A stretch of DNA of 64,000 bases from NCBI GenBank assembly GCA_031414535.1, contig JANNVQ010000002.1:1-64000 (forward strand), given 5' to 3'. The translations under genes and the position numbers were made by a program. Of this stretch, positions 45,837 to 61,187 are shown piece after piece. Below the pieces are notes generated by a model. The model was given only the letters and a program-made list of their open reading frames with translations. It ran no database searches and was not told the DNA's origin. The stretch is from Gemmatimonas sp. (lineage in GTDB: Bacteria; Gemmatimonadota; Gemmatimonadetes; Gemmatimonadales; Gemmatimonadaceae). The number at the start of each line of letters is the position of its first letter. The stretch's first letter is position 1.

Positions 45837-48221
45837 GTGAGCACGCCTCGTCCTGGAATCCCCGCTGCGCTCTCCGAGCGCTACGAGCCGCGCCGAGAAA
45901 TTGGTGCAGGCGGCATGGCCGTCGTCTACGACGCCTGGGACGTACGACAGAAGCGCAGTGTCGCCGTCAAACTCATTCGCCCCGAACTCGTCAGTCAGGC
46001 CCTCTCGGAGCGCTTTGAGCGCGAAGTCGCCATCGCCGCCCAGTTGGTGCACCCGCACATCGTGCCAGTCTTCGACGCTGGCAAAGAGGGCGACACCCTC
46101 TACTTCGTGATGCCCCTGCTGACCGGTGGCACGCTGCGTGACCGTCTGGTGAAGTACGGCCCACTGCCCGCGTCTGAGGTGCGGCGACTCGCAGAACAGC
46201 TGGCCTCGGCGCTTCACTTTGCGCACCAGCGCGACTGCATCCATCGCGATGTGAAGCCGGAGAACATCCTGATGTCCGAGGGTGCTGCGATGTTGGCCGA
46301 CTTCGGTATCGCGCGCAGCGACGATATCGCAGCTGGGCTGTCCACCACCGGTGGATTCCTCGGATCGCCCACGTACGCGAGTCCGGAGCAACTGCTTGCC
46401 ACGGGGCCTGTGGGGACGTCCAGCGACCAGTACTCCTTGGCTTGTGTGCTGTTCGAGGCGCTGGCGGGACGCGCACCGTTTATTGGGCGGAGCGTCGGGG
46501 ACGTAGTGGTGGCGCACACCACGGAGGCCGCGCCGCTCCTGAGTACAATCCGTCAGGACGTCCCACCCGCGATGGTTTCTGCCATTGCGCGCGCGCTCTC
46601 CAAGCGACCTGAAGATCGTTTTGCCACCATGGCGGAGTTCGGCGAGGCCTTTTCGGCGAGTTCGGCGGATACCTTCGTCGCGCGTGGATCGGGATGGACT
46701 GGCCGTCGCGTTGCGGGGGTTGCCCTTGGTCTCGCTGCTGCAGCGGGGATCTATTTCAGTGGCCTCCTTACTCCGGGCAAGAGAGAAAGCGGACCGCGGA
46801 GTATCGCTGTGCTCCCATGCAAGAACGCCAGTGGCGATTCGCAGCAGGAGTTTTTCAGCGATGGCGTGACCGAGCACCTGATTGGGCAGCTCGCTACGCT
46901 GCCAGAGGTGCGGGTGATCAATATGATTACCGCGCTACAGTACAAGGGCACCACCAAGTCGGTGGAAGTGATTGGCCGTGAGCTCGAGGCGGACCTCTTA
47001 GTGTATTGCTCGGCCAATCGGCAGCCGGACGGCGTACTCATTGCGGCGCAGTTAGTGGACGTGAAGACAGGTGACGTGTTGTGGACGCGCGAGCACCTGG
47101 ATGAATCGCAAGTGAGTCTCAAGTCCTACATGAACGCGTCGCTGAGCATGGTTGAGGCCCTGCGTGTAACGCTGAGCGCAGAGGGGCGTCGTCGCATCAT
47201 GACCCCGGCCACGGAGAACGACAGTGCTCATTCACTCTGGATGCGCGGAAAGCGGGAGTGGAACCGCGGTACCTACGAGGGGCTCGTTCAGTCGCGTCGG
47301 TACTTTACGCTCGCCCTCGAGCTGGATTCCGCGTACGCGCCGGCCTGGGTGGGTCTCGCGGATGCGCATCTGTCGTTCGTCGGCCGCTGGATGCAACCAG
47401 GACCGCCCAACTACGCTGCCGCAGAGATGGCGGCCAGCAGAGCAATCACGAAAGACCCAGAGCTGGGTGAGGCATTGGCGGCCCGTGGTCGGGTGCGTCA
47501 CCGAGCCCAGTGGGACTTCAAGTCGGCACGCGAGGACTACAACGCCGCCCGCCTGGTGAGCGAGAGCTCGTGGCAGCCATGGCTCGATCATGCCAAGCTG
47601 TTGTCCGTGCAAGGGCGCCATGAAGAGGCCATTAAGTTCGCGCGCCGCGCGCAGCAACTCGATCCGATGAACGCGATTAACGTGCTCGGACTTGCGGAGA
47701 TTCTCTACTTCGCGCGGCGCTACGACGATGCGCTGAAGGAAACCGACCGAGCCATCGAACTCGAGCGCACGTTTGCGTTCAATCATCTCTGGCGTGCGAT
47801 GATTCTCATCGGCATGGCGAGGCCTGAAGACGCCGTGATATCCGCGCGTGAGGTGGTTCGCCTGACAGGGGGCCACCCGGGCGCGCTTGCCATTCTGGCG
47901 CGCGCCGAGGCGGAGTCGGGGCGGCCTGAGGTCGCACGCACCATCCTTGGCCAGATGGAGCAGGCTCCCGCTGACCTTTACGTGCCCGCTACGCTCGTGG
48001 CTGTCGTGTACATGGGCCTGAACGACACCGATCGCGCGGTGGCCGCCCTCACGCGCGCCGTCGAGACCCGCGATTGGTTCATTACCGAGCTGGCCGTGCA
48101 CCCACTCGCCGACAAGGTGCGCGATGATCCCCGCGTCCAAGCCCTCCTCGTGCGGATGGGCCTCGACGACGTGCCTCGACCCGCACGGACGCCCCGCGTG
48201 GCCACGCCGATAGAGAACTAG
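45837..48221 (+). CDS. Transmembrane Hanks-type Ser/Thr kinase with TolB-like and TPR domains
   Basis: GAGGMAVV, VAVK, HRDVKPEN, DFG and SPEQ; TM; SIAVLP..N.SGD....FFSDG; TPR repeats. Confidence 0.93.
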   Translation: MSTPRPGIPAALSERYEPRREIGAGGMAVVYDAWDVRQKRSVAVKLIRPELVSQALSERFEREVAIAAQLVHPHIVPVFDAGKEGDTLYFVMPLLTGGTLRDRLVKYGPLPASEVRRLAEQLASALHFAHQRDCIHRDVKPENILMSEGAAMLADFGIARSDDIAAGLSTTGGFLGSPTYASPEQLLATGPVGTSSDQYSLACVLFEALAGRAPFIGRSVGDVVVAHTTEAAPLLSTIRQDVPPAMVSAIARALSKRPEDRFATMAEFGEAFSASSADTFVARGSGWTGRRVAGVALGLAAAAGIYFSGLLTPGKRESGPRSIAVLPCKNASGDSQQEFFSDGVTEHLIGQLATLPEVRVINMITALQYKGTTKSVEVIGRELEADLLVYCSANRQPDGVLIAAQLVDVKTGDVLWTREHLDESQVSLKSYMNASLSMVEALRVTLSAEGRRRIMTPATENDSAHSLWMRGKREWNRGTYEGLVQSRRYFTLALELDSAYAPAWVGLADAHLSFVGRWMQPGPPNYAAAEMAASRAITKDPELGEALAARGRVRHRAQWDFKSAREDYNAARLVSESSWQPWLDHAKLLSVQGRHEEAIKFARRAQQLDPMNAINVLGLAEILYFARRYDDALKETDRAIELERTFAFNHLWRAMILIGMARPEDAVISAREVVRLTGGHPGALAILARAEAESGRPEVARTILGQMEQAPADLYVPATLVAVVYMGLNDTDRAVAALTRAVETRDWFITELAVHPLADKVRDDPRVQALLVRMGLDDVPRPARTPRVATPIEN

Positions 48222-48224
48222 GCG

Positions 48225-48959
48225 CTAGTTTCGCGGCGCGCGGCGCTCCAAGAGCGCGACGCTGCCCAACATGACTGCAGTGCACCATCCGCCAACATGT
48301 AGCGCCAACCGCGCCGCCACCGTCCACGCGCGCGCATCAACGGCATCGCGCAGTTCGGCCACCACGAAGAGTGGTGGCAGACCAAAGCGGAGAAGTGACT
48401 GGAGCAGTGCCGGTACGCTCCCGGACAGCACCGGTGCAAACAGCGTCAGAACAACAACGAGCATCGCGAGCTCAGGCGCGTTCGGCGAGCCGCTGGCGCC
48501 AAGCCCGAACATCAGCACGCTCAAGACCACCATACTGGCGCCGAGCATCGCGATGAGCATAACCGAACTGCCGAGCGAGGGCTCGAGTCCGTAGAGGGGT
48601 GCGGCGGCAAGGAGCAGGGCAGTGAAGATCGTGATCGTGGCGACCAGTGGGAGCAGGTTGGCCCGCCATTTGGCAAACGCCCAGTCTGCCGGCGAGAGGC
48701 CTTTGTGCTGCAGCCAGAACTCGAGCTCGTCAGATACGGCAGCATCGCGTGCAATCAGGAACGCCGCGACGAGGGTGCCGAACATGAGAATCGTTCGATG
48801 CGCGTCGCTCCAGGAGTCTCCGAGCCCGAGGCGATGGGTCGGCAGCACGAGCGCCAAGCCAAGCGCGGCCAGGATGGTGATTCCGCGTGTGCCGGGGGCG
48901 CCGTATCGCCAGCGCGCGAGGTGCCAAGCGAAGGGGATGCGTGCGCTTGGCTCAGGCAT
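48225..48959 (-). CDS. Putative ABC exporter permease
   Basis: About 6 hydrophobic segments; start overlaps the 3' end of the ABC ATPase gene. Confidence 0.7.
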   Translation of the reverse strand: MPEPSARIPFAWHLARWRYGAPGTRGITILAALGLALVLPTHRLGLGDSWSDAHRTILMFGTLVAAFLIARDAAVSDELEFWLQHKGLSPADWAFAKWRANLLPLVATITIFTALLLAAAPLYGLEPSLGSSVMLIAMLGASMVVLSVLMFGLGASGSPNAPELAMLVVVLTLFAPVLSGSVPALLQSLLRFGLPPLFVVAELRDAVDARAWTVAARLALHVGGWCTAVMLGSVALLERRAPRN

Positions 48960-49677
48960 GGATCACGCGCTCCGTGGAGAGAAAGCGCGCCTCGAGCGAC
49001 TGTCCGTCAGACGAGAGTTCAGCGGCCGAGTGGTCGCCCACAAGCCACCCCTCCTTCAGGAAGAGCACGCGTGAGGCGAGTCGCTGCAGCTCGTCGAGAT
49101 GATGAGACGACACGACGATGCAGCGGCCAGGGCGCTGTGCCGCGATGATGCCGTGACGGAGCTGTGTCATCGCGATGGGGTCGAGTCCGTTCGTCGGTTC
49201 ATCGAAGAGAATGAGATCGGGATCCCCGATCAGGGCGGCGACGACTTCCACACGCCGCGATTGCCCCAATGACAGAGTGTTGAGGCGTCGGTCCGCTAGT
49301 CGCTCGAGGTCGAATGCCGAGGCGAGATCGCGCTCGCACTCTGTCATAGCCGGATTCCCGCAGACCTGACGCAGGCCATCCAAGAACTGCGCCACGCTGA
49401 GGTAGGCCGGGAATCGTGGTTGCGCCGGAATGAACCCAAGCGGCACCGACTGGCGATAGCGCCGCGCCTCAACACCCCCGATGCTCACCGAGCCGGATGT
49501 GGGCACCTGCGCTCCGGCAACACATCGCAGGAGCGTGGTCTTTCCAGCCCCGTTCGCACCGACTAAGCCGACGATGCCGCCGCGGAGCGTGACACTGATG
49601 CCGTCGAGCGCGACGAGCTTGCCTCCACCGAAGGCGACGCGAAGATCCTGCAGGACAACAATGGATGATTCACTCAT
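48952..49677 (-). CDS. ABC transporter ATP-binding protein (exporter type)
   Basis: GANGAGKTT, LSLGQ, DEPTNGLD and SSH motifs. Confidence 0.95.
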   Translation of the reverse strand: MSESSIVVLQDLRVAFGGGKLVALDGISVTLRGGIVGLVGANGAGKTTLLRCVAGAQVPTSGSVSIGGVEARRYRQSVPLGFIPAQPRFPAYLSVAQFLDGLRQVCGNPAMTECERDLASAFDLERLADRRLNTLSLGQSRRVEVVAALIGDPDLILFDEPTNGLDPIAMTQLRHGIIAAQRPGRCIVVSSHHLDELQRLASRVLFLKEGWLVGDHSAAELSSDGQSLEARFLSTERVIHA

Positions 49678-50740
49678 GGGATCGCAAGTTGAGACGTTCG
49701 ATGATGGTCACGGCGTCCAGCTCGCGCACGCGAAGCAAGCTCCCTCGGACGGCGAAGAAGCCGCTCGAGTCCGGCGCGGACCACAGCGCGGCAATCGGGC
49801 GGCCGTCGCGCCCGATGAGCTCGGCGACTGCGGCCTCCTCATTGCGTACCGTGACCACGAGGATCTCGCCGCTCTCCGCGATGGTTGCCCCGCGGAGTGA
49901 GGGCAGCGACTCGCCGAGCAAATAGTCACGGCGCTGCGCCTCGGGGAGCATTGCGATGTGCCCGCGCATGCGCTGCGCAAACGCTGAGGAGACTTGAAAG
50001 TGCGGTGCGTCCGCTCGCCGCGCGGAGTCGAGCAACATGAGCGAGGGCGAGTAGCCACGGATACGCCAAGTCTCGGCGTCCACCACAGTCAGGCTCGCGT
50101 CATCTTCGGCCATGAGATGTGGGATGTTGAGCGTCTCCCCAGTGCGCTGGCCGGGTAGCACGGGAAGCGAGTCCACGTGGGAGCCACGGAATCGTTGCAC
50201 CAGCCAATGGCCACTGCTGTCTGTGCTAATCCAACTGGTGAGCATCATGCTCGCTGAGCCCGGCGTGAGCGATTGGTGCAGCGCAACCTGTCCGTTGGCT
50301 TGCCCAAGGACGCGATCCGCGAGACGCTCGCCCGTCGTGGTCCACATCGTGATGCGATGCCGCGGCGCATCCAGCACCGCTACACCCTCGGGCGTACGCA
50401 CGATGCCCTCGGCGCGGGCGAGGTACTCCGGTGCGCCCGTGAGGGCTGTGCCGTAGCTGCCCTGAAGCTGCCCATCAACGACCAAACTCCAGACGTGCAC
50501 CTGCAATACGAACAGCGAGTCGCCCACGAGGTCCAGTGCGCGAACTCGACCGTCTTCAAGCTCGTCTGGTGAGAGGCGAGCGAGTTCCGTCCAACCCAAC
50601 ACCAGACTGGTGTCGAGTGGAGCGAGCTGTCCACTGCGGGGGCGATCCGATCCAGCGGCGGAATCGGACAAGGCAAGTCCGATTCCGCCGAGGATCACGA
50701 CCGCGCCGACGAGGCTAAGTGTTCGAGCGGCGCGGGTCAC
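49670..50740 (-). CDS. Membrane-anchored/secreted beta-propeller-like protein
   Basis: N-terminal TM/signal, repeated short beta-strand blades, 'G....GAPE' and 'VLD...HRI..W...G' patterns like 6-bladed propellers. Confidence 0.6.
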   Translation of the reverse strand: MTRAARTLSLVGAVVILGGIGLALSDSAAGSDRPRSGQLAPLDTSLVLGWTELARLSPDELEDGRVRALDLVGDSLFVLQVHVWSLVVDGQLQGSYGTALTGAPEYLARAEGIVRTPEGVAVLDAPRHRITMWTTTGERLADRVLGQANGQVALHQSLTPGSASMMLTSWISTDSSGHWLVQRFRGSHVDSLPVLPGQRTGETLNIPHLMAEDDASLTVVDAETWRIRGYSPSLMLLDSARRADAPHFQVSSAFAQRMRGHIAMLPEAQRRDYLLGESLPSLRGATIAESGEILVVTVRNEEAAVAELIGRDGRPIAALWSAPDSSGFFAVRGSLLRVRELDAVTIIERLNLRSHE

Positions 50741-50743
50741 GAG

Positions 50744-50971
50744 TTAGAACGGGTTGATGACGACATTGATCGTGCTGCATCCGACGAGACGTCCGGTGCA
50801 GACGACTCCGATCGCGACCCGCTCGACCCAGTTTGAGTCTTCCATCGCCGATGCGCACTCGGAGATGACTCGGCCCTGACACTGCGAGACCGTTTCCTCC
50901 GCGAGCAACGGAGCGGAGAGCGATGCCGTGAGGGCCAGCGCTGCGAGCGGTACACGAATCAAGTGCTTCAT
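50744..50971 (-). CDS. Small secreted four-cysteine peptide 1 (C-x7-C-x18-C-x6-C)
   Basis: GGGAGG RBS, Sec signal (LLA|EE), 75 aa; stop 3 nt before the next gene; paralog at 51148-51366. Confidence 0.85.
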   Translation of the reverse strand: MKHLIRVPLAALALTASLSAPLLAEETVSQCQGRVISECASAMEDSNWVERVAIGVVCTGRLVGCSTINVVINPF

Positions 50972-51046
50972 ACCTGCCTCCCTAGTTGGGGTTGGGCCGC
51001 GAAGCTACCAGGGTACGCGGAATCCTTGTCATCGAATTCCCGCCGA

Positions 51047-51101
51047 CAGCGTCACTGCAACGTCATCGCAACGTCATCGCAACATCAGCGCAACGTCATC
51101 G
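51047..51101. repeat. Five tandem 11-bp direct repeats (consensus CAACGTCATCG)
   Basis: CAGCGTCACTG CAACGTCATCG CAACGTCATCG CAACATCAGCG CAACGTCATCG. Confidence 0.92.
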
Positions 51102-51147
51102 GGAAGATCTCCGCAGGGAGGATTTGGTATGCGTGGCCCGCGAACGC

Positions 51148-51366
51148 CTAGAAGGCCTCGGAGGAGCAACCCAACAGCAGGACGGTGCAGGCCGCGTCCA
51201 CAGCTGTTTCCTCGAACTCGTTGGCGCCTTCACGCGCGAGTTTGCACCAACGCAAGGTGAAGGAGAGGCAGTCCCTGTACTCTTTCCAGCCTTCGGCTCG
51301 CGCGGGAGCGGCGTAGACGGAAAGGAGCAGGCTGGCGGTCAGGCTGGGGATGAGCAAACGACGCAT
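51148..51366 (-). CDS. Small secreted four-cysteine peptide 2 (C-x7-C-x18-C-x6-C)
   Basis: GGAG RBS, Sec signal (ARA|EG), 72 aa; same Cys spacing as peptide 1. Confidence 0.85.
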   Translation of the reverse strand: MRRLLIPSLTASLLLSVYAAPARAEGWKEYRDCLSFTLRWCKLAREGANEFEETAVDAACTVLLLGCSSEAF

Positions 51367-51384
51367 ATGAAGCTCCGGTCTGAG

Positions 51385-51407
51385 GTGAGCGCAGAGTCTG
51401 CGCTCAC
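51385..51407. other. Perfect 11-1-11 palindrome upstream of peptide 2
   Basis: GTGAGCGCAGA-G-TCTGCGCTCAC. Confidence 0.7.
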
Positions 51408-51471: not shown

Positions 51472-53679
51472 CTAGAAGCTGCGCTCAAGTCCCAGCAGTA
51501 CGACGCGTCCCATCCCCGGAAGCAGGCCGCGCGTGCGATCCACAATCACAAGCGCGTCGGCCGCGTTCTTGACGGATGCAAACACGGTGACGCCGAGCGA
51601 GGCGGGGCTCCAGTTCAGCGAGGCATTCCAGATAGTGCTCGCGGGCAGGACGCCCTGCTGACCATCCGCCACGGTAATGCGCGTGTTCGCGGGATCTCCG
51701 AACTGGGAGCCAAGGTGCACGGCTTCGAGCGAGACATCGAAGCCCGCGAGATGCCGCAGGCCAAGTGTTGCGGTGAGCGTAAACTCTGGCGCGTAGGGCA
51801 GACGATTGCCGGTCACTGAAACGGCCGCGCGCGTCGCGGCTACGTTTTGTTCGGAGTACACCTTGCCCACGACGTCGCTGCCGCCGGTGCCGATGAACGC
51901 AAGGCGAGTGCCTTGGAATTGCGCGATGGGCAGCCAAGTGGCGGCCAGAGCTGCGAAGGGTACGAGCCGCCCGCGCGAGGGCAGATCGCCGCGAAGATCG
52001 AGTTCCACGCCTTGGTGCAGGGTACGACCGGCGCTGGTGAGTGCGGCACCGATGCCGCCAGCCACCGACGCGGGCACGACTTGGTTTTCGAAATCCATCC
52101 GGAACGCCGTGGCGTCAAGGCTCCAGCCGCTGGCCGGCGTCCAGCGCGCACCGATCTCGTAGTTCCAGCTACGTTCGGGCGCGAGTTCTACCACACCGCC
52201 CGTGCTGTTGCTGATGATATCTTCGTTGCGCGGGGGAGAGAAGCCGCGGTGTACTCCGGCGAACAGTCCGAGGCCATCGGTCACGGTGAGTGTGGTTCCG
52301 AGACCCGGAATCACTTCAGTCAGTGTGGTGCTGCCGCTCACCCCTGAGGGATTTGCAGCAGTCGCCAGACGATTCGTGCGTGCGATGCGGATATGCTCGA
52401 CGCGCAGGCCCGGCGTAACGCTCCAGCGGTCGTTGCCGATGCGGCTTTGCGCGAAAGCGGAGAGGGCGTCCGTATCGCGACGGTTGTCCTCCGAGGTTGC
52501 GCCGGAGCGTGAATCGTGGGCTACGCCATTGAGCTGACGGCGCAGTTGGACCTCGCGATGCATGCGCGCGCCAAGGTCTAAGGTCCCCGCAAGGGCACCG
52601 AGCAGCAGGGGCTGCGAGTAGCGCGGTTCGATGCCCATCACCTGATAGCGGCGCAGGCGCCCTTCGTTGCCGCAGCCAGATTCGAGATTGGCGATGCTGC
52701 CGCAGTTTGGGTCCGCGGCATCGTTGGGCCGCTGGCTGGAATTGCTGGACTGCCGCCACCAATCACGCGAGACATCGTGTGCGTACGCAGTGGTGAGGAG
52801 CCGGCGTGGGCCGACACGCCACTCGTGCGCTACGCTGCCGCCTACCCGGGCGATATCAAAGTGGTCGTTGCGAAACGGATTCTGCCGCGGATCATTGGCC
52901 CATTCGCTTTCAGTGAGCCCGGAGTAGGTGACTTGAGACTCTTCGCGAAACACGTTGGTCTTGGCAATCAGCCGCTGATGGTTCGCTAAGGGGACGAAGA
53001 GCTTGAGCGAGGCATCGCTGACCTCAGAGTTTGTGTTTTGGCGTGCGCCGATGCCGCGCCAACGCCCGAGGTCGAGCGTGGCCCCGCCCTTGCCATTCAC
53101 GCTCGAGGCCCGGGCGTAACCGCTGGCGAAGTCGTTGCTACCACCGGACAGACGGAGTTGCCCACTGGAGCGCGAGGGTAGTCCCGGCGTGATGTAGTTG
53201 ATGACTCCGCCAACCGTTTGCGGCCCGTGGAGAATCTGGCCTGCTCCCTTGAGCACCTCGATGCTCTCCATGCGTCCAACTGGCGGGTGGTAGTAGGCCG
53301 CGTTGTCGCCGTAGGGGGCGAGTGTGAGGGGAACGCCATCCTCGAGGAGGAGCACTTTATTTGAGCGCGTGGGGTTGAGACCACGAATGCCAATGTTGGG
53401 GCGGAGGCCCAAGCCCTCTTCGTCGCGCACCACGATGCCTGAGATCTTTCGGAGCGCTTCGTTTGCCGTGAGGACGCGCGCGCGTGTGAGCAGAGTGGCG
53501 TCGAGCCGTTGCGCGGAGCCCGGAATTCGGGCGCGTTCATCCACACTACCAACAATCGAAAGGCCAGGCAGCAGCGCCGCTGAATCGCCGGGGGAAGGCA
53601 CCTGGGCGTGGACTGCCGAGAGCCCGCAGGTGGCGAGTGCGAGAAGGCTACGGAGGATCGAGGCGAGAGCTCGGGACAT
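51472..53679 (-). CDS. FecA-like TonB-dependent iron receptor
   Basis: NIGIRGLNPTRS.K.LLLEDGVP...APY, IEVLKG....L.GPQT.GG.INY and C-terminal Phe; Fur-like box upstream. Confidence 0.9.
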   Translation of the reverse strand: MSRALASILRSLLALATCGLSAVHAQVPSPGDSAALLPGLSIVGSVDERARIPGSAQRLDATLLTRARVLTANEALRKISGIVVRDEEGLGLRPNIGIRGLNPTRSNKVLLLEDGVPLTLAPYGDNAAYYHPPVGRMESIEVLKGAGQILHGPQTVGGVINYITPGLPSRSSGQLRLSGGSNDFASGYARASSVNGKGGATLDLGRWRGIGARQNTNSEVSDASLKLFVPLANHQRLIAKTNVFREESQVTYSGLTESEWANDPRQNPFRNDHFDIARVGGSVAHEWRVGPRRLLTTAYAHDVSRDWWRQSSNSSQRPNDAADPNCGSIANLESGCGNEGRLRRYQVMGIEPRYSQPLLLGALAGTLDLGARMHREVQLRRQLNGVAHDSRSGATSEDNRRDTDALSAFAQSRIGNDRWSVTPGLRVEHIRIARTNRLATAANPSGVSGSTTLTEVIPGLGTTLTVTDGLGLFAGVHRGFSPPRNEDIISNSTGGVVELAPERSWNYEIGARWTPASGWSLDATAFRMDFENQVVPASVAGGIGAALTSAGRTLHQGVELDLRGDLPSRGRLVPFAALAATWLPIAQFQGTRLAFIGTGGSDVVGKVYSEQNVAATRAAVSVTGNRLPYAPEFTLTATLGLRHLAGFDVSLEAVHLGSQFGDPANTRITVADGQQGVLPASTIWNASLNWSPASLGVTVFASVKNAADALVIVDRTRGLLPGMGRVVLLGLERSF

Positions 53680-53768: not shown

Positions 53769-54017
53769 TCAACTGCGTAGGCTGCTCTCCACTCGGGTTC
53801 GCAACGTCGCGAACTCGGCGTCCACCGCCGGCGCTGCGGCACGGACAGCGTCAAGGAACGCTTGGGCAAAGTCGTAGTGCGAGGTGCAGCCCGTACAGCC
53901 TACGAGATGGGCGAGGACGCGCGTGCGCTCACCCTCGGGCAAGGCGCCGTCCAAGTACGGCCACAGGCGCTGGACCACCTCTTCGCAGTCCATGAGCGTG
54001 GGGAGTTCAGTCGTCAT
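53769..54017 (-). CDS. Zinc-finger (zf-HC2/ZAS) anti-sigma factor
   Basis: C....L..YLDG.L........HLVGCTGC (HxxxCxxC); soluble; ATGA overlap with the sigma gene. Confidence 0.9.
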   Translation of the reverse strand: MTTELPTLMDCEEVVQRLWPYLDGALPEGERTRVLAHLVGCTGCTSHYDFAQAFLDAVRAAAPAVDAEFATLRTRVESSLRS

Positions 54018-54586
54018 TTTGATTCCACCGCAGGCGTGTTTCCGTACCCGCTGTCAATGGCGTGAGCGATGAGTGCCTCTTGGAGCAAGCGTCGTGCGCG
54101 GTAGAGGCGCGAGCGCACCGTTCCCACCGGGATGGTGAGCAGTTCTGCGATCTCCTCGTACGAGAATCCTTCGATGTCGTACAGGGTGACCACGTCCCGA
54201 AATGCGGGCACAAGGTTTTCGATTTCTCTCCGTATTGCGGGGCCGAGGTCGAATCGGTCAAACAGATCATTCAGACCAGCGGCGCGTGCACTGCGGTGGG
54301 GATTGGCGGCGCCGAGTGCCTCCAAGGTCTCGTCTTCAACCGCGGTCACAACGTCCTCGCGTCGCCGTTGAGCGAAATGCGCATTGCGGCAAATCGTGGC
54401 CAGCCATCGCTTGCAGTCTGAGCCTTGGGCGAAGGTGTTCCAGTGTCTGAGCGCCCGAAGGAAGGTCTCTTGCACCAGATCCTCGGCGTCGCTCACATCG
54501 CGGGTGAGGGCGCGCGCCACACGCGCTACCGCCGGAAGGTGCGGGAGCGCCACAGACTCAAACGACTCGGGGTCCGCGAGCGTCAT
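54014..54586 (-). CDS. ECF RNA polymerase sigma factor
   Basis: DAEDLVQETFLRA, WL..I.RN and GFSYEEIA..L.IPVGTVRSRL.RAR motifs. Confidence 0.93.
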   Translation of the reverse strand: MTLADPESFESVALPHLPAVARVARALTRDVSDAEDLVQETFLRALRHWNTFAQGSDCKRWLATICRNAHFAQRRREDVVTAVEDETLEALGAANPHRSARAAGLNDLFDRFDLGPAIRREIENLVPAFRDVVTLYDIEGFSYEEIAELLTIPVGTVRSRLYRARRLLQEALIAHAIDSGYGNTPAVESK

Positions 54587-54593
54587 CCCTGGC

Positions 54594-55313
54594 TCAGGTC
54601 CCGCCAAACCATTCGTAGCCGGCATCAGACCAATAGCCACCGTTCGGCTTCGGCAGGAACATGATACTGGTGAGGTACTTGGTGTTCTTGTAGCCGAGCT
54701 TGACGGGCGAATGCACTCGCGCCGGTGCACCATAGGCCGGCGCAAGATCCCTGCCGTCTTTTCCATACACAATCATCGTTTGTGGATGCATCGCGCTCTC
54801 AAGATCCCAGCTCTCGTGGTAGCCATCATCGAAGCTCTGAAAGTCCACAAAATTCGCGGCGGGGTCAGGGCGAACGAGCGCGGCGACGTCCCGCAGGCTT
54901 ACCCCGCTGAATTCTGCCACGGCCGTCCAGCCCTCCACACAGAAATGATCGACGCGCTGCGTGCGCCGTGGGAGTCCTTGAAGATCCGCGAGCGAGAGTG
55001 AAACCGGACGAGCCACCATCCCGCCGACCTCTAGCCTCCAAGCGCCGCGCATGGCCTCGTCCCACACGGGGACCCGAGTAGAGATGAAGTAACTCGGGAA
55101 TCCATCCCCCGCGATGGCCGCGCCAGGCGAGCCAGCGTTCATGGCGGTGTGGCGTACCAAGCGCTGTTCAATGAGCGCATTTTTGCGCGTCGCATAGCTC
55201 AACAGCTTTTCGGCCTCCGCCGGACCGCGACTGTTGCAGGCCGCGAGCGCCAAGGCTGCGGTGCTCAGCCCTGCGGCGCGGAGAAACTCACGACGATCCC
55301 AGTGCGCGCTCAT
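54594..55313 (-). CDS. Tat-exported molybdopterin oxidoreductase (MsrP/YedY-like, sulfite oxidase family)
   Basis: DRREFL Tat motif, lipobox LAAC, HFCVEGW Moco Cys, GAP.R...P.KLGYK..K and GYW...GY. Confidence 0.85.
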   Translation of the reverse strand: MSAHWDRREFLRAAGLSTAALALAACNSRGPAEAEKLLSYATRKNALIEQRLVRHTAMNAGSPGAAIAGDGFPSYFISTRVPVWDEAMRGAWRLEVGGMVARPVSLSLADLQGLPRRTQRVDHFCVEGWTAVAEFSGVSLRDVAALVRPDPAANFVDFQSFDDGYHESWDLESAMHPQTMIVYGKDGRDLAPAYGAPARVHSPVKLGYKNTKYLTSIMFLPKPNGGYWSDAGYEWFGGT

Positions 55314-56068
55314 AGTTCTGCCGTGTCGGAGGACGGAGTGAGGTCCGCGCTCGGCGCGGTCGGTGACGAGCGGCGGAGCAGGTTGATAAACGGTCGGGCG
55401 TTGCGCGCTTCCGGAGAGTGGGACTCATCGTAGCCGCCGGTCAGCATCGCGCGCAGCGAATACGGATCAACCGTGAAGACCATGAACACGTGACCAATGG
55501 CTGTCACCAGGAGCGCCATCATCGCAGCGAAGTGGATGAAACGCGCCCACACATAGCCTCCAAGAAGCGCGGTGAGCCAGCCCAGGCTCACGGGTTTCCA
55601 GATGGCAATGCCGCTGATGACGATGACCGCCGCGATCCACGGCATACTGAAGTACGCCATACGCTGCATCGCATTGTGCTTGCCTTGGCGCGGATGTTCA
55701 CGCTCAAGCCACAGGTAAAACCGCAGCATGGCCCACACGTCGCGCGCCGTACCGCGCCGTGGCACGAGGTCTCGCCACTCGCCGTGCAGGTAAATGAAGC
55801 CCAGGTAAATGAGCCCATTCACGACCAGCACCCACATCATTGCAAAGTGCCAGTGCCGCGCGCCGCCGAGCCATTCGCCAAACGTGAGCCACGAAGGGAC
55901 CGGCGTGCCTTCAAACGGATTGAGTGGAAACGTTTCGCCTTTGCGGGCAAAGGCCGGGTACGCGTTGAAGATGCGTAGGCCACTGCCCACCATCACCACG
56001 AGGGCGATCGCGTTCACCCAGTGCGTCAAGCGCACAACCCAATGATGTCGATGCGTAAGAGAGCTCAT
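55310..56068 (-). CDS. Di-heme cytochrome b membrane subunit (Ni/Fe-hydrogenase cyt b type)
   Basis: VRLTHW.NA, SGL.IFNA.P, RHWHF, HN..QR..Y and RFIHF; ATGA coupling to the Mo enzyme. Confidence 0.88.
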   Translation of the reverse strand: MSSLTHRHHWVVRLTHWVNAIALVVMVGSGLRIFNAYPAFARKGETFPLNPFEGTPVPSWLTFGEWLGGARHWHFAMMWVLVVNGLIYLGFIYLHGEWRDLVPRRGTARDVWAMLRFYLWLEREHPRQGKHNAMQRMAYFSMPWIAAVIVISGIAIWKPVSLGWLTALLGGYVWARFIHFAAMMALLVTAIGHVFMVFTVDPYSLRAMLTGGYDESHSPEARNARPFINLLRRSSPTAPSADLTPSSDTAEL

Positions 56069-56076
56069 CCCCGCCA

Positions 56077-56104
56077 GTAGCGACGAAGAAGCCGGGAAGT
56101 TCCC
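56077..56104 (-). promoter_or_regulatory. Putative ECF promoter for the cyt b-Mo enzyme-sigma-antisigma operon
   Basis: Minus strand GGGAAC-N16-CGCTAC, ending 8 nt before ATG 56068. Confidence 0.8.
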
Positions 56105-56117
56105 GTTACAGAGACGC

Positions 56118-56145
56118 GGGAACTCGCGGCCATGTCCGACGCTAC
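56118..56145 (+). promoter_or_regulatory. Putative ECF promoter for the Met-rich peptide
   Basis: Plus strand GGGAAC-N16-CGCTAC, same boxes and spacing as the divergent copy. Confidence 0.8.
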
Positions 56146-56196
56146 GGGGCGGTGGGTCGGAGCCTCCGATTACACACACAACTCGAGGAGTTTCAG

Positions 56197-56469
56197 ATGT
56201 CCGTGGTTCGAATGACCGTCGCAGGTCTTATCCTGATGCTGGTGGCCTCGCCGCTCGCAGCCCAGGGCACTCGGGCGCAACGTCCGATGATGCGCGATTC
56301 TTTGATGCCCTGTCCGTCCACACCCGCTTCCGGCGGCGCAATGGCTGGTGGGCAGATGGCCGGTGGCAACATGAGCCGTGACACCGCGATGGCGCGCGGG
56401 GGCATGATGCGGCCAGCCGCCGACTCGATGCGGCCGCCCTGCAGACCGAACACGGCGCGGCCCAACTAG
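56197..56469 (+). CDS. Methionine-rich secreted low-complexity peptide
   Basis: GAGGAG RBS, signal peptide (LAA|Q); about 68-aa mature part with 10 Met and 2 Cys. Confidence 0.8.
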   Translation: MSVVRMTVAGLILMLVASPLAAQGTRAQRPMMRDSLMPCPSTPASGGAMAGGQMAGGNMSRDTAMARGGMMRPAADSMRPPCRPNTARPN

Positions 56470-58493
56470 TCGCGCTGCGTCACTCTGGGAGCGTCGCGCG
56501 GGGGCAGGAAGAACTCGCGCGGCGACTTTCGGAGGCGACGTAACACGCGAGCCGTGAGGCCGGTCGTGTCGCCGGGCGTGATGCCACGGGACCGCAGTGC
56601 AACCTTGAGCGCGAGGTAGAAACTCACCACGAGGTTCACGAGGCCAATCAACACGACGCCCGCCGCCGACACGACGATCACACGCCAGCCCGTCGCGAAG
56701 TCCAAGGCCTGCAGCGCGTATGCGAGGTTGGCTGAGGCAAAGGCGACATGTCGGATATCCACTGGCAAGCCAAAGAACGCCCCGACCGTCCCGGTAGCGC
56801 CCAGCATGCAGCCAAAGATGAAGTTGCCGGCCAAGGCGCCAATGTTGTTTTCCACGTAGACACTCACCCGGTCAAGCCGCGGCTGACCCAGCGTGCGCCG
56901 CAACCACTTCACGCGGCGCAGGCGCTGGGGAATGCGATGAAACAGTGACTGATTGTCGTAGTAGCCGGAAATCAGTCCGCTCAAGAACAAGTACACGCCC
57001 GCGATGGCTGCGTGGAACAGTGCGAGGCTTTGCCAGGGATTAAGATCGTGCAGCAGATGCTCGGCCTTTTCGAGGTTGACAGGCTCCCAACCAAGGAAGG
57101 TCTTGCCCACGAGCCCAATCGCGAGGGCCGTCAAGAAGCCGATGACCACGTTCCCCGCGATGGACACCCATTGGGTCCGACTCACTTGAGCGGCGAGCGC
57201 AGAGATCTGGGTGAGGCGCGTGTCACGATCCGTCGAGGCATCGAGTGCGCCCGCTAGGGTTGCGGCCGTCATCGCCGGTTGCTTGGTGGCAATCGTGAGA
57301 TGCAGGATGTGGACGAGCACGAAGCCCAGTCCGTAGATGAGACTGAACGCCACGGCTTGCCAGAATCCAGGAAGCCCAAGACTCCCTGCAAGAATTTTCA
57401 ACATCGCCATCACCGCGACAATCAATCCCGCACCGCAGGCCGCGCGCCACATCTCGCGGTACTCCGAGCGCGTGCTCGTCACATAGTGCTCACCAGACTT
57501 GCTCGCGTGCTCGGTGACGCGTCGCGCGAGGAGCTGCGTGGTGCCTTCAAAGATTGCGCCCATGCGGTTCCGGCGACTCTCCGCACGCACGAGCAGGAGC
57601 ATGAAGCGAATTGTGCGCGCGCGGCGTGCGCCTTCGGTGTCGGTTGGGTTTGCGAGCACGAGGAGTCGCAGCAGTTGCAGGCGCGCCACCAACTGCTCGA
57701 TGCGCGCAAGGACGAAGACGAGATTCACGTCCACGCCGCTGTCGTGTGACGTATTACGAATCTGCGTCACGAACTCGGTGCACTGGCCGAGGAGCAACTC
57801 GAGATACCCGTCGTGCGTGCTCGGCGCATCGGCCGCTGTCCGTGCCGTGATGAAGTGCCGCACCTCATCGCTCTGTGAGAGGAATGGCGACTCGTGACGG
57901 GCCAAGGCCGGTGAATAGCGGAGCAGGGAGGACTCCATGCCGAGCGCCGCCAAACGATGCGAGGTCATACGCATCGCTTCGAGCAGCTCGTGGTACATGT
58001 GCGCGCGCACTGGCGCGAATGCCTCGGTGTACACGCCCAGCCGATCGAACAGCGCGAGCCAGAGTTCCATGGGGATGGCGCCCACCCATTCGCCATCGTG
58101 CGCCTCGTCAAAGACCTCCGCGACGAGATCGCGAAGGAAGTAGGGGTCTACCGCGGGCGGAAGGAGGCTTCCAAGAAGGCGACTCCAGATGCCGGCCAAG
58201 AAGCCGGCACTCGCCAAGACTCCGGACTCCGCGTAGAGCGTACGGTGCATGCGTGACTTGAGCACCTGACGCAGGTGCTCCGCCAGCGCCTCAGCCAGTG
58301 CGGGCCGCTCGTCGAGGGTGGCCAAGAATCCCTCAAAACGGACACCGGCGGACGCGGAATCGCGGGCCCGCGCGGGCCGAATCAGCTGGACGAGCCGACC
58401 GAGGAACTCCGCCGAAGTCTCACCCGGCTGGCGGGCGATCTCGCGGAGGAGTTCCTCGGCGCCTTCGAGCGGGGGCGTGGCGGCGGTGGTCAC
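56466..58493 (-). CDS. Multi-TM protein of the Gcr / 'site-specific recombinase' family
   Basis: GEHYVT, GAG, ATKQPAMTA, RTQ....GNV, HAAIAG...FLSG.ISG and P.DIRHVAF motifs. Start uncertain. Confidence 0.8.
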   Translation of the reverse strand: MTTAATPPLEGAEELLREIARQPGETSAEFLGRLVQLIRPARARDSASAGVRFEGFLATLDERPALAEALAEHLRQVLKSRMHRTLYAESGVLASAGFLAGIWSRLLGSLLPPAVDPYFLRDLVAEVFDEAHDGEWVGAIPMELWLALFDRLGVYTEAFAPVRAHMYHELLEAMRMTSHRLAALGMESSLLRYSPALARHESPFLSQSDEVRHFITARTAADAPSTHDGYLELLLGQCTEFVTQIRNTSHDSGVDVNLVFVLARIEQLVARLQLLRLLVLANPTDTEGARRARTIRFMLLLVRAESRRNRMGAIFEGTTQLLARRVTEHASKSGEHYVTSTRSEYREMWRAACGAGLIVAVMAMLKILAGSLGLPGFWQAVAFSLIYGLGFVLVHILHLTIATKQPAMTAATLAGALDASTDRDTRLTQISALAAQVSRTQWVSIAGNVVIGFLTALAIGLVGKTFLGWEPVNLEKAEHLLHDLNPWQSLALFHAAIAGVYLFLSGLISGYYDNQSLFHRIPQRLRRVKWLRRTLGQPRLDRVSVYVENNIGALAGNFIFGCMLGATGTVGAFFGLPVDIRHVAFASANLAYALQALDFATGWRVIVVSAAGVVLIGLVNLVVSFYLALKVALRSRGITPGDTTGLTARVLRRLRKSPREFFLPPRDAPRVTQRD

Positions 58494-58538
58494 TGCGGGA
58501 ATTTGGCCACGGGACCCGCGGGGCGGCACCCTCTAACG

Positions 58539-58593: not shown

Positions 58594-59772
58594 CTAGCGA
58601 GTAGGCCAAGGTGGGCCCTGATCGCGACGGCTGACTGTGCGCATCCCGCGATACACGAATCGTTGCACGCGTTTGCCCTCGTACGTCTCGGTTGTGAAGA
58701 TGTTGCCTCGCGAGTCCGTGGCAATTGAATGCACCGCGAAGAACTGGCCAGGCTGACGTCCGCCACCACCGAAACTGGTGAGCACCGAGAGCGTACGCCG
58801 ATCCAAAACGTAGACCTTTTCGTTCTTGCCATCCGCGAGGTAAAGAAAGCGCTGGGCGCTGTCTTTGGAGAACGCGATGTCCCATACGGCACCGTCGCCG
58901 AGTGTGCGCGGCGCGATCTGCACCTCGTTCACAAACTGGCCGTTGCGCCGAAACACCTGAATGCGATTGTTCGGGCGGTCGCAGACGTATACGAGGCCGT
59001 CGCTCGCCGGCTCGGCGCAGTGTACGGGATTGCGGAACTGCTGGGCGAGCGGTGCGTCCGGATTGTAGGGGCCCAAGTTAGAGTCCGAAGGCACGTTGCC
59101 ATAGGCGCCCCAGAATCGCTTGACCGCGCCGCTGGTCATGTCGAGTACCGCGACGCGCTTGTGTCCATATCCATCGGCTACAAAGGCCTCGTTGGCTGCG
59201 GGGTCGAACGAGATTTTCGCGACGCGACCAAAGTGTTCGGTGCTGCGACTATCCGCCGCGCGTCCCGGTACCCCGAGCGTGCGCACAAAGCGGCCGTCGC
59301 GCGTGAATTGCAGGATGTGCGAATCGCCCTGACCGTTGCCGCCAATCCACACATTGTCGCGGTGGTCAATGGCAATCCCGTGATTGGACATCGGCCAGGT
59401 GTAGCCCTCACCCGGCCCGCCCCATGAGCGTACGAGATTGCCTTCGGGGTCGAACTCGAGCACCGGCGGAGCGGGGCGGCAGCACTCGCCGGTCGGCGGG
59501 TTCTGCGCGGCGCCCACCTCGGTGCGCGCATTCAACGATTGCTCGCGATGGACGATGTACACGTGATCGCGGGAGTCCACGCCCACGCCGATCACCGACC
59601 CAATCACCCAGCCGTTGGGCAGCGGCTTGGGCCAAAACGGATCAACCTCAAAGTGTGGCGCCTGCACCGACTGCTGCGCCAACGACGCGCTGAGTCGGTC
59701 CTGACCGACCGCGAGACTGAGGATGGCCGCACCCAACACTGCGCCCACGAGAATCGTTCTCTTCGCTGACAT
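58594..59772 (-). CDS. Secreted NHL-repeat beta-propeller (PAL-like) protein
   Basis: FEVDPFWPKPLP, HGIAID, VADGYG..RV, HC......G.VYVCDR.N.RIQVF and HSIA.DS.GN motifs; GGAG RBS. Confidence 0.88.
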   Translation of the reverse strand: MSAKRTILVGAVLGAAILSLAVGQDRLSASLAQQSVQAPHFEVDPFWPKPLPNGWVIGSVIGVGVDSRDHVYIVHREQSLNARTEVGAAQNPPTGECCRPAPPVLEFDPEGNLVRSWGGPGEGYTWPMSNHGIAIDHRDNVWIGGNGQGDSHILQFTRDGRFVRTLGVPGRAADSRSTEHFGRVAKISFDPAANEAFVADGYGHKRVAVLDMTSGAVKRFWGAYGNVPSDSNLGPYNPDAPLAQQFRNPVHCAEPASDGLVYVCDRPNNRIQVFRRNGQFVNEVQIAPRTLGDGAVWDIAFSKDSAQRFLYLADGKNEKVYVLDRRTLSVLTSFGGGGRQPGQFFAVHSIATDSRGNIFTTETYEGKRVQRFVYRGMRTVSRRDQGPPWPTR

Positions 59773-59858
59773 CCTCACTCCAGACTTGAAGTCGCTGCTA
59801 TTGAAGGACTTGCTCCGCCCCCCTGTGGGACCCAGCGCATATGCTATATCTCTCAGCG

Positions 59859-61187
59859 GTGAAGCACCAGACGCGACTTTCTGTTCTCTGCGCATGCGCG
59901 CTCCTGCTGGCCACGCCGGCACGTCTCGTCTCGCACGAGATTCCAGCGCGCGTTGCCGTGCGTGCGTGGGTGGCGGCCCGTGATACCGTGCTTACGCTGC
60001 TCGTGCGCGTGCCGTTGGAGGCAATGCGCGATCTCGACTTCCCGGAACGGGCCAACGGGACTCTCGACATGACGGCCGTGCGCGGGCTGCTGCCGGACGC
60101 CGCGCGACTGTGGGTGGCGGAGGCAATCGTCGTCTACGCCGACGGCGCAGACGTGGGCCAAGGCAGGGTTCGCGCCGTGCGGGTGGCGCTGCCTGACGAT
60201 CGAAGCTTTGCCACATGGCCGTCGGCGTACGCCATCTTCGAGCGGCCGCTGCTCGGCGACTCCGTGAGCTTGCCGTGGCGTCAGGCCTCACTGGATGTGG
60301 CGCTTGAGTACCCGATTCCGAGCGCCTCGGCGAGACTCGAGATTGCGCCGCGCCTCGCGCGGCTTGGTGTGCGCACGCTGAGTGTGTTCAACATCGTGGC
60401 CGTTGATGGCAGCGTTCGAAGCCTCAGCTACGAGGGCGACCCAGGGCTGGTGAGCCTAGACCCGCGTTGGTGGCAGAGCGCCGCGCAGTTTCTACAAGTG
60501 GGCTTTGCGCACATCCTCGGTGGGGTCGATCACCTGCTCTTCGTGTTCTGCCTTGTGCTCCCGGTGCGACGCTGGCGTCCCTTGGTTGCGGTGGTGACTG
60601 CGTTCACGGTTGCTCACTCCATCACCTTGGCTGCCGCTGCGAGTGGTGCGCTTCCAACGGCGCTGTGGTTCCCACCGCTCGTTGAAGTCGCGATTGCCGT
60701 TTCCATCCTCTGGCTGGCGGTGGAGAATGTGTTGCTCCCCACCGAACGACTGGAGGGCCGCTGGAAGGTAGCGTTCGGATTCGGGCTCATTCACGGGTTT
60801 GGCTTCTCATTCGCGTTGCAAGACCAGTTACAGTTTGCGGGGAGCAACCTGCTGAGCGCCCTCGCGGCGTTCAATGTGGGTGTCGAGGCTGGGCAGCTGC
60901 TCGTGCTTGCCGTGTCGCTTGCAGTGCTTCAACTTCTGCGTCGGGGATTGCCCGCCGAGCGCGTTCATCTGCTGACCTGGGTTGGCTCGGCGTTGGTGGC
61001 TCACTCCGCGTGGCATTGGATGACGACGCGTTGGGCGACACTCGCTTCCTATGAAATGCGCGTGGCGATGCCAACGTTCGATGGCGCATTCGCGTTGCTG
61101 AGCATGCGCCTTGGCCTGATTGCGCTGATTGCCTGTGCAGCGGCGCTGGGCCTCCGGCAGTTTGTTTCACGATTCCTCCGTACCTGA
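59859..61187 (+). CDS. HupE/UreJ family protein with N-terminal periplasmic domain
   Basis: G..HI..G.DHLLF, TAFTVAHSITL, FGL.HG.GF and FNVGVE.GQ motifs. Confidence 0.88.
   Translation: MKHQTRLSVLCACALLLATPARLVSHEIPARVAVRAWVAARDTVLTLLVRVPLEAMRDLDFPERANGTLDMTAVRGLLPDAARLWVAEAIVVYADGADVGQGRVRAVRVALPDDRSFATWPSAYAIFERPLLGDSVSLPWRQASLDVALEYPIPSASARLEIAPRLARLGVRTLSVFNIVAVDGSVRSLSYEGDPGLVSLDPRWWQSAAQFLQVGFAHILGGVDHLLFVFCLVLPVRRWRPLVAVVTAFTVAHSITLAAAASGALPTALWFPPLVEVAIAVSILWLAVENVLLPTERLEGRWKVAFGFGLIHGFGFSFALQDQLQFAGSNLLSALAAFNVGVEAGQLLVLAVSLAVLQLLRRGLPAERVHLLTWVGSALVAHSAWHWMTTRWATLASYEMRVAMPTFDGAFALLSMRLGLIALIACAAALGLRQFVSRFLRT

Follow-up and report, generated by a model that had tools for sequence, protein, structure and literature searches.

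A four-cysteine mini-protein family linked to an NHL-type beta-propeller, an ABC-2-class ATPase and a permease in Gemmatimonadota

In lanthanide-using bacteria, the PedA1A2BC operon combines genes for a periplasmic binding protein and for a beta-propeller whose function is unknown with those for an ATPase and a permease (PMC6839425). In a different setting, heat-stable enterotoxin II (STII), a small peptide exported by Sec, acquires two disulfides once in the periplasm, where MacAB-TolC then handles it (PMC5985334), an example of an ATP-binding cassette (ABC) machine acting from the periplasm on a peptide matured by Sec and Dsb. Here we describe a locus that resembles both in part. It lies in a 64,000-nt stretch of Gemmatimonas sp. 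contig JANNVQ010000002.1 (the window; its genome is called G000 and that of a congener G185), and consists of genes for secreted four-cysteine mini-proteins followed by genes for a beta-propeller protein, an ABC ATPase and a permease. The mini-proteins are a new small-protein family within a known type of layout, conserved and unannotated. Small secreted proteins are routinely missed by annotation, and in this module a fixed Cys framework is strictly coupled to an ABC machine, in a phylum that has received little study.

Copper delivery by NosDFY-NosL likewise relies on an ATPase and a permease of the ABC-2 type, to which a beta-rich accessory protein and a small chaperone, both periplasmic, are added. 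NosF is among the nucleotide-binding domains (NBDs) nearest to the module's ATPase, but NosD folds as a beta-helix instead of a propeller, the lipoprotein NosL carries Cu ligands, and the module has neither a sequence-model match nor a nosZ context. PedA1A2BC, with the related Lut systems, shares the four-gene layout. Unlike it, the module has as its putative periplasmic partner a predicted 50-residue disulfide hairpin, with no gene for a substrate-binding protein; its propeller is NHL-like and anchored by a transmembrane (TM) helix rather than of the YVTN type; its ATPase scores 106.4 bits against a cut-off of 302.25 with TIGR03864, the model of the pyrroloquinoline quinone (PQQ) system and the second-best match, while the propeller and permease have no NCBIfam match; and no PQQ dehydrogenase genes lie near it in the window. 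MacB belongs to another ABC type, marked by a large periplasmic domain, and works only with MacA and TolC; the module has none of the three. The module's permease has 244 aa and short loops, and beside the module no adaptor or outer-membrane factor gene is conserved in any of the 17 loci. The module peptides have no sequence relationship to STII, and no toxicity is implied for them.

LanFEG-type immunity systems and Pmt-type pumps also place an ABC-2-class ATPase and permease beside a small peptide gene, but the match to their model is far below cut-off, and the module peptides are unmodified, Sec-dependent and anionic and occur in a diderm host. Double-glycine/C39 bacteriocins and ribosomally synthesized and post-translationally modified peptides (RiPPs) differ in that the module peptides carry Sec-type signals, the ATPase is NBD-only and no peptidase or RiPP enzyme was found in the scanned flanks. 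Mitochondrial CHCH and Tim proteins and the plant alpha-hairpinins are twin-CxnC proteins, in which two antiparallel helices are joined by two nested disulfides in an oxidising compartment. The module peptides differ from these in their Cx7C/Cx6C spacing, show no sequence or Foldseek similarity to solved chains, and sit in a bacterial periplasmic context linked to an ABC machine. Because no protein of the window is recovered by the curated models of the PedA1A2BC or STII systems, we say that the module works like these systems, and not that it is a member of them.

A four-cysteine peptide family and its gene neighbourhood

On the minus strand of the window, the order of the genes is pepA, pepB, propeller, ATPase and permease.

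51148-51366 (-): pepA, 72-aa precursor of an A-type four-Cys mini-protein; Sec-type signal ending in ARA, ahead of EGW; core C-x7-C-x18-C-x6-C; GGAG 6 nt ahead of the ATG; orthologue in G185
51057-51101: 11-nt tandem repeat, 4.1 copies, in the pepA-pepB intergenic region and outside the conserved module
50744-50971 (-): pepB, 75-aa precursor of a B-type four-Cys mini-protein; Sec-type signal ending in LLA, ahead of EET; GGGAGG 5 nt ahead of the ATG
49670-50740 (-): propeller gene, 356 aa; N-terminal TM helix (about residues 7-25), NHL-like six-bladed beta-propeller, helical insert at 252-273
48952-49677 (-): ABC ATPase, 241 aa, NBD only; PF00005 and canonical motifs
48225-48959 (-): permease, 244 aa, about six TM segments; probably a divergent ABC-2-like membrane subunit

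A preliminary description of this DNA had claimed two small open reading frames (ORFs) with Sec signals (72 and 75 aa), each with a ribosome-binding site (RBS), identical C-x7-C-x18-C-x6-C cores, tightly coupled downstream genes, and no RiPP-modifying enzyme or C39 peptidase. The ORFs are present as claimed and the cores and their spacing are exact in both peptides. The propeller gene starts 3 nt past the pepB stop, the ATPase gene overlaps the propeller gene by 8 nt and the permease gene overlaps the ATPase gene by 8 nt, which bears out the coupling; neither type of enzyme was found among the window genes scanned or at related loci. The mature form of pepB has about 51 aa, an isoelectric point of 4.4 and a net charge of about -3.

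The peptides are a real family without a curated model. Neither pepA nor pepB matched any Pfam-A or NCBIfam r20 family at E ≤ 0.1, and a 48-row peptide profile matched no PDB sequence at E ≤ 10, in keeping with the earlier remark that the family could not be recognised. Among the papers listed in full-text literature searches, none described the family or the operon, and curated models are also absent. Thirteen close relatives of pepB were found at 63-92% identity in a 90% cluster database, and a profile made of these and pepA, searched against 1.84 billion representative proteins, returned 50 representatives at E ≤ 1e-3 (20 at E ≤ 1e-10), nearly all of 65-78 aa. Alignment A3 comprises 48 rows, namely 44 of the 50 representatives and four copies from the window and G185; it omits P0037, P0049, P0056, P0059, P0060 and P0073, which have atypical lengths (33, 107-125, 606 and 1367 aa). 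In A3 the first and last cysteines (C1 and C4) are invariant, all four are present in 45 of 48 rows, and the exact 7/18/6 spacing is kept in 41 of 48, so the possibility that homologues would lack the Cys framework did not materialise. Three rows (two distinct sequences) lack C2 and C3 together, and loss of just one of them occurs in no row. With signal peptides removed, pepA-type (9 rows) and pepB-type (38 rows) profiles align in hhalign with a probability of 98.9% (E 1.5e-17), well beyond what chance would give, and the window's pepA and pepB are therefore paralogues, as had been proposed. A Sec-type signal is present in every genomic peptide copy.

Among the rows without C2 and C3 is the pepA of G185 (L018 7480-7704), which keeps C1, C4 and the N-W-x-E-K tip and has Ala at both C2 and C3. 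It is presumably a natural single-disulfide variant, as is P0069, in which Tyr and Arg replace C2 and C3. Other searches for relatives gave little. The best ESM Atlas score for the peptide was 0.83, a weak lead only; a profile scan of genome contigs returned only a signal-peptide look-alike; and neither the propeller alignment A2 nor the peptide alignment A1 matched anything in scans of metagenome contigs. Further pepB matches in its own genome were weak (E > 0.2) and were set aside; one frame of L005 lacks the Cys framework.

The genome-context search covered one phylum, Gemmatimonadota, with the following occurrence of the peptide.

Window's own family: 2 of 201 genomes (G000 and G185); other rows at E > 1e-3, mostly with in-frame stops
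Phylum sample: 5 of 401 genomes
Class sample: 6 of 401 genomes
Family f7: 11 of 301 genomes
Family f4: 4 of 73 genomes

In total the peptide occurs in 17 distinct genomes from three families, and was not found in the other families sampled within the phylum; for one f7 homologue, the source gives the label Longimicrobiales. Peptide, propeller, ATPase and permease genes follow one another on one strand, in that order, in 14/14 loci with enough DNA, and the propeller gene is directly next to the peptide gene in 16/16 loci with any downstream DNA. Of the incomplete loci, two end within or just after the propeller gene and one has its peptide gene at a contig end. This last locus is also the exception in the f7 sample, where the propeller was found in 10 of 301 genomes, all of them among the 11 peptide carriers. 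The profile search and synteny test that had been proposed at the outset thus recovered the family in 17 genomes, and the genes for propeller, ATPase and permease proved to be genuine and in strict linkage with the peptide gene (14/14 loci). Two peptide genes are present only in G000 and G185, and a single gene in the other 15 of 17 genomes. The suggestion of a two-component system is therefore not general, and reflects a lineage-specific duplication (2/17 genomes).

The pepA-pepB gap holds a tandem array with the unit GCAACGTCATC (+ strand); a related sequence is present in G185 but the array is not expanded there. About 30 nt ahead of the pepB start, RBS included, are conserved between G000 and G185. 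A promoter scan returned 0 promoters, and a terminator scan returned 7 terminator-like sites where 4.5 were expected; the minus-strand terminator-like sites within the operon (48225-51366) all lie inside genes. Sequencing runs that share more than half of the sequence words are DNA runs, only from freshwater-sediment metagenomes of one study, and no RNA run is among the runs listed for the sequence.

Predicted structures of the peptide, the propeller and the ABC pair

AlphaFold2 run on A3 predicts a signal helix, a helix at residues 28-44, a three-residue loop and a helix at 48-72, with a predicted local distance difference test (pLDDT) of about 90-92 across residues 31-60. The distance to the loop is about 9-10 residues for both C2 and C3 and about 17 residues for both C1 and C4, a symmetric arrangement. 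This symmetry, the predicted hairpin and the joint loss of C2 and C3 together support putative nested C1-C4 and C2-C3 disulfides, and the helical hairpin with nested disulfides put forward in the preliminary description fits all three. A Foldseek search with the peptide model returned nothing better than E 2. Disulfide formation in the periplasm is plausible, because the G000 genome encodes a VKOR homologue (1 match) and two DsbA-like Thioredoxin_4 genes (2 matches); DsbB was not found in it. A single tetrahedral Cys4 metal site was considered and rejected by reasoning, as cysteines 7-8 residues apart on one helix are about two turns apart.

In the column statistics of A3, helix 1 has a small/hydrophobic stripe (C, V, C, A, A), the tip is a conserved E-D/E-S/A-N-W-x-E-K/R, and helix 2 is nearly devoid of charged residues. 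Of 13 genomic copies, 12 give anionic mature peptides with net charges of -2 to -10, and one is near neutral. The peptide is short enough for chemical synthesis, and disulfide mapping and binding assays would be simple. The tail after C4 varies from 2 to 17 aa (L027, L031, L040, L042 and the window pepB are among the members), and many tails alternate hydrophobic and polar residues and end in F, L or I, a strand-like pattern in a region where AlphaFold2 is not confident (pLDDT 52-78).

The propeller protein was recognised through structure prediction and by no sequence model. None of 14 orthologues has a Pfam or NCBIfam match, and neither PF01436 (NHL repeat) nor PF17170 (DUF5128) matches any of the 14 at E ≤ 1. 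AlphaFold2 on alignment A4 (14 sequences) gave a pLDDT of 84.1 and a predicted template modelling (pTM) score of 0.82. The model is an all-beta propeller after an N-terminal helix, with the helical insert at 252-273; the N-terminal helix (3-28) is of low confidence, overlaps a 19-residue hydrophobic segment and is not accompanied by a lipobox. The top Foldseek matches are the NHL domains of TRIM71, Thin and Brat (E 3e-10 to 1e-8; target-normalised template modelling score ≤ 0.68), and a weak sequence-profile match to the TRIM71 NHL domain (E 0.005) agrees with them. At the level of fold, AlphaFold2 and Foldseek together place the protein among six-bladed NHL-type propellers, which confirms the earlier "beta-propeller-like" label. 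Its invariant residues are only G, P, W, L and one Arg, with no His, Asp, Ser or Cys set, and for this reason the protein appears to be a binding scaffold rather than an enzyme, as far as sequence conservation suggests.

Membership in DUF5128 was also considered. ESM Atlas neighbours of the propeller are Gemmatimonadota clusters with DUF5128 in 21-40% of their members, but the hidden Markov model rejected the assignment, and in a genome-wide PF17170 search six other ORFs matched and the propeller gene did not. A full-text literature search returned no paper naming DUF5128. The propeller is single-copy in G000. The same genome holds an unrelated second NHL-repeat protein, about 8 kb from the module (58594-59922 (-), PF01436, 442 aa), and six weak DUF5128-like ORFs elsewhere, and together these suggest an expansion of six-bladed propellers in G000.

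The ATPase matches PF00005 at 7e-23, and Walker A, the signature (LSLGQ), Walker B and the H-loop can be read in its translation. It is a separate NBD with canonical motifs, as expected of the ABC-2/type V class. Its best NCBIfam matches are DrrA, PQQ_ABC_ATP and lantibiotic protection, each at about a third of the cut-off, and the solved NBDs nearest to it are those of the ABCA family and NosF. By sequence it groups with ABC-2-associated NBDs (DrrA, PQQ_ABC_ATP, NosF and ABCA). The permease shows about six hydrophobic segments with short loops in its hydropathy profile. ABC2_membrane_3 gave a weak match (E 0.011) in 2 of 10 orthologues only; the window copy has no Pfam match, and no NCBIfam or PDB sequence match was found.

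Possible roles of the mini-protein

The reading that we prefer, tentatively and with somewhat less than an even chance of its being right, is that the mini-protein is a disulfide-stapled periplasmic partner or shuttle that docks on the propeller-ABC complex, and not a peptide exported by it. The Sec signals carried by all the peptides make the ABC pair dispensable for their crossing of the inner membrane, and the "ABC exporter" of the preliminary description becomes unnecessary. The precursor would be exported via Sec and cleaved after the A-x-A-like site, and the VKOR and DsbA-like system would then form the nested C1-C4 and C2-C3 disulfides. The resulting hairpin would display an acidic helix 1, the conserved tip and the nearly all-apolar helix 2; helix 2, being almost wholly apolar, would have to be buried, probably against a partner or by self-association. 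Held at the inner membrane beside the putative ABC-2-type permease, the propeller may bind the hairpin, and ATP hydrolysis could drive the loading or unloading of cargo between the membrane complex and the hairpin, or a conformational action on the hairpin itself. If this is correct, no periplasmic partner known from an ABC system would be smaller than the hairpin, and the module would offer a handle on the role of propeller-plus-ABC-2 modules, including the function of PedA2.

Comparison of conservation between the genes bears on this. Averaged over all pairs from 10 genomes, the peptide cores are 45.8% identical and the ATPases 48.0%, as against 32.2% for the propellers and 32.1% for the permeases, and the peptide core without its four cysteines is still at roughly 40%, above the propeller and permease. 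Judged from these sequences, the pattern suits a constrained partner, not a diversifying toxin. It has to be weighed against the view that the module makes a bioactive peptide and protects its producer, with a Sec-dependent antimicrobial or membrane-active hairpin (in a two-peptide form in the window's genus), the propeller as a binding or immunity protein and the ABC-2 pair as a clearing pump like LanFEG or Pmt. The gene order, with the peptide gene first and then an ABC-2-class ATPase near the lantibiotic-protection and DrrA resistance models, is consistent with such a system, as are the patchy, accessory distribution, the duplication of the peptide gene in one lineage and the apolar helix 2. 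STII with MacAB-TolC shows, as a precedent, that an ABC pump can handle from the periplasm a two-disulfide peptide that depends on Sec and Dsb (PMC5985334). However, the mature peptides are anionic (12/13), their core matches the ATPase in conservation and exceeds the propeller and permease, the module has no conserved neighbouring gene for an outer-membrane channel, an adaptor, a protease or a modification enzyme, and the ATPase scores 105.3 bits against a cut-off of 309.75 for its third-best match, the lantibiotic-protection model TIGR03740. The anionic charge, the strong purifying conservation and the lack of a conserved outer-membrane route argue against a classical bacteriocin and weaken the bacteriocin claim made at first; the broader proposal of a bioactive peptide with self-protection we consider to have a low, still appreciable, probability. 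If it were true, a bacteriocin that is anionic, depends on Sec and is paired with propeller-based immunity would form an unusual class for a diderm.

The apolar helix 2 and the class of the ATPase also bear on what the machine might move. Periplasmic carriers that work with an ABC machine are exemplified by MlaC with MlaFEDB and by LptA with LptB2FGC. By analogy, the module could be an envelope device for a non-metal cargo such as a lipid, a glycolipid or a hydrophobic metabolite, with the hairpin oligomerising through helix 2 to act as the carrier. Consistent with this, the NBD is of the ABC-2/type V class with ABCA lipid transporters nearest among solved structures, helix 2 is fully apolar, and the alternating hydrophobic residues in the C-terminal tails of many members could form a strand. 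We nevertheless consider it quite unlikely, given a distribution too patchy for a core envelope function, the lack of any predicted lipid-binding fold and the lack of homology to Mla or Lpt components.

For the periplasmic-partner reading, our first guess at a cargo is a cation or metal, because helix 1 is anionic and iron-related genes are occasional neighbours. Upstream of pepA in the window, and converging on the operon from downstream, are the following genes.

51472-53679 (-): TonB-dependent receptor, plug and barrel without an N-terminal signalling extension; ends 105 nt before pepA
53769-54017 (-): zf-HC2 anti-sigma factor, 82 aa, RsrA-like
54014-54772 (-): extracytoplasmic function (ECF) sigma factor, upstream of pepA on the same strand
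45837-48221: Ser/Thr kinase with TPR repeats, convergent with the operon

A DtxR-FeoA fusion gene lies directly after the permease gene, on the same strand, at two loci from Longimicrobiales-family genomes, L031 (13-1296) and L044 (8185-11400), and in L044 it is also followed by FeoB. Together with the TonB receptor of the window these make iron-related neighbours at 3 of 17 loci, which is why the link to iron is only a weak lead. That the hairpin founds a new class of acidic, disulfide-stapled periplasmic mini-proteins, acting as soluble cargo shuttles of a propeller-docked ABC-2 machine, most plausibly for a metal cation, and in effect as a 50-residue stand-in for a substrate-binding protein or metallochaperone, seems to us unlikely.

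Several observations weigh against a periplasmic partner or against its proposed cargo. The hairpin has 50 residues and no obvious pocket, and most propellers are acidic as well, which leaves the two without overall charge complementarity. None of the three larger proteins, ATPase, propeller and permease, reaches the cut-off of any Ped, Nos or other curated model. The module's patchiness (2/201, 11/301 and 4/73 genomes) would also suit accessory competition or defence genes. As to iron, the ECF sigma/anti-sigma/TonB receptor block is absent at the G185 locus, and 14 of 17 loci have unrelated neighbours (histone-deacetylase-like, sigma-54 activator, AraC, MscL and fumarase-like fusion genes).

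Regulators and other neighbouring genes

Beyond the four gene types, no neighbour is conserved across the loci, and the regulators nearby differ between lineages. It could be that the module is regulatory, with the hairpin as a periplasmic ligand sensed by the anchored propeller and the ABC pair as a mechanotransmitting or flux-sensing device for lineage-specific regulators. NHL propellers serve as extracytoplasmic sensor domains, and the sensor domain of PknD is among the Foldseek matches. Different lineages have different regulators beside the module: the ECF sigma/anti-sigma pair and the kinase in the window, the same kinase in G185, a sigma-54 enhancer-binding protein directly upstream of the peptide gene in three of the four f4 loci (L050 8110-9135, L052 6902-8449 and L026 111-731), and an AraC regulator upstream in L042. 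Set against this, no regulator is conserved over the 17 loci, the convergent kinase is common only to G000 and G185 and thus linked within one genus only, the module contains no sensor-kinase partner of the BceS type, and a search ahead of 14 peptide genes found no sigma-54 promoter motif. A signalling role is, in our judgement, very unlikely. The promoter search took about 300 nt upstream of each of the 14 genes and allowed up to two mismatches to the -24/-12 consensus.

G185 has a CHAT protein where the window has the TonB receptor, and both L027 and L042 have histone-deacetylase-domain genes downstream. In all three g290 loci, L050 (3250-5133), L051 (8975-11059) and L052 (1891-4008), a gene fusing a cyclic nucleotide (cNMP)-binding domain to a fumarase/aspartase-type lyase lies directly downstream of the permease gene, and in f4 loci a GAF histidine kinase gene follows this fusion.

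Farther upstream in the window, a gene pair at 54594-56179 (-) encodes a protein with a molybdopterin-binding oxidoreductase domain (PF00174) and a cytochrome b561 (PF01292), a pair that we take to resemble the MsrPQ type. The window also holds a gene for a 687-aa membrane protein (56466-58529 (-)) with a full-length match to PF10136, "Site-specific recombinase", at 4.8e-208, and, on the opposite strand, a gene for a 448-aa HupE/UreJ_2 protein (59841-61187 (+)).

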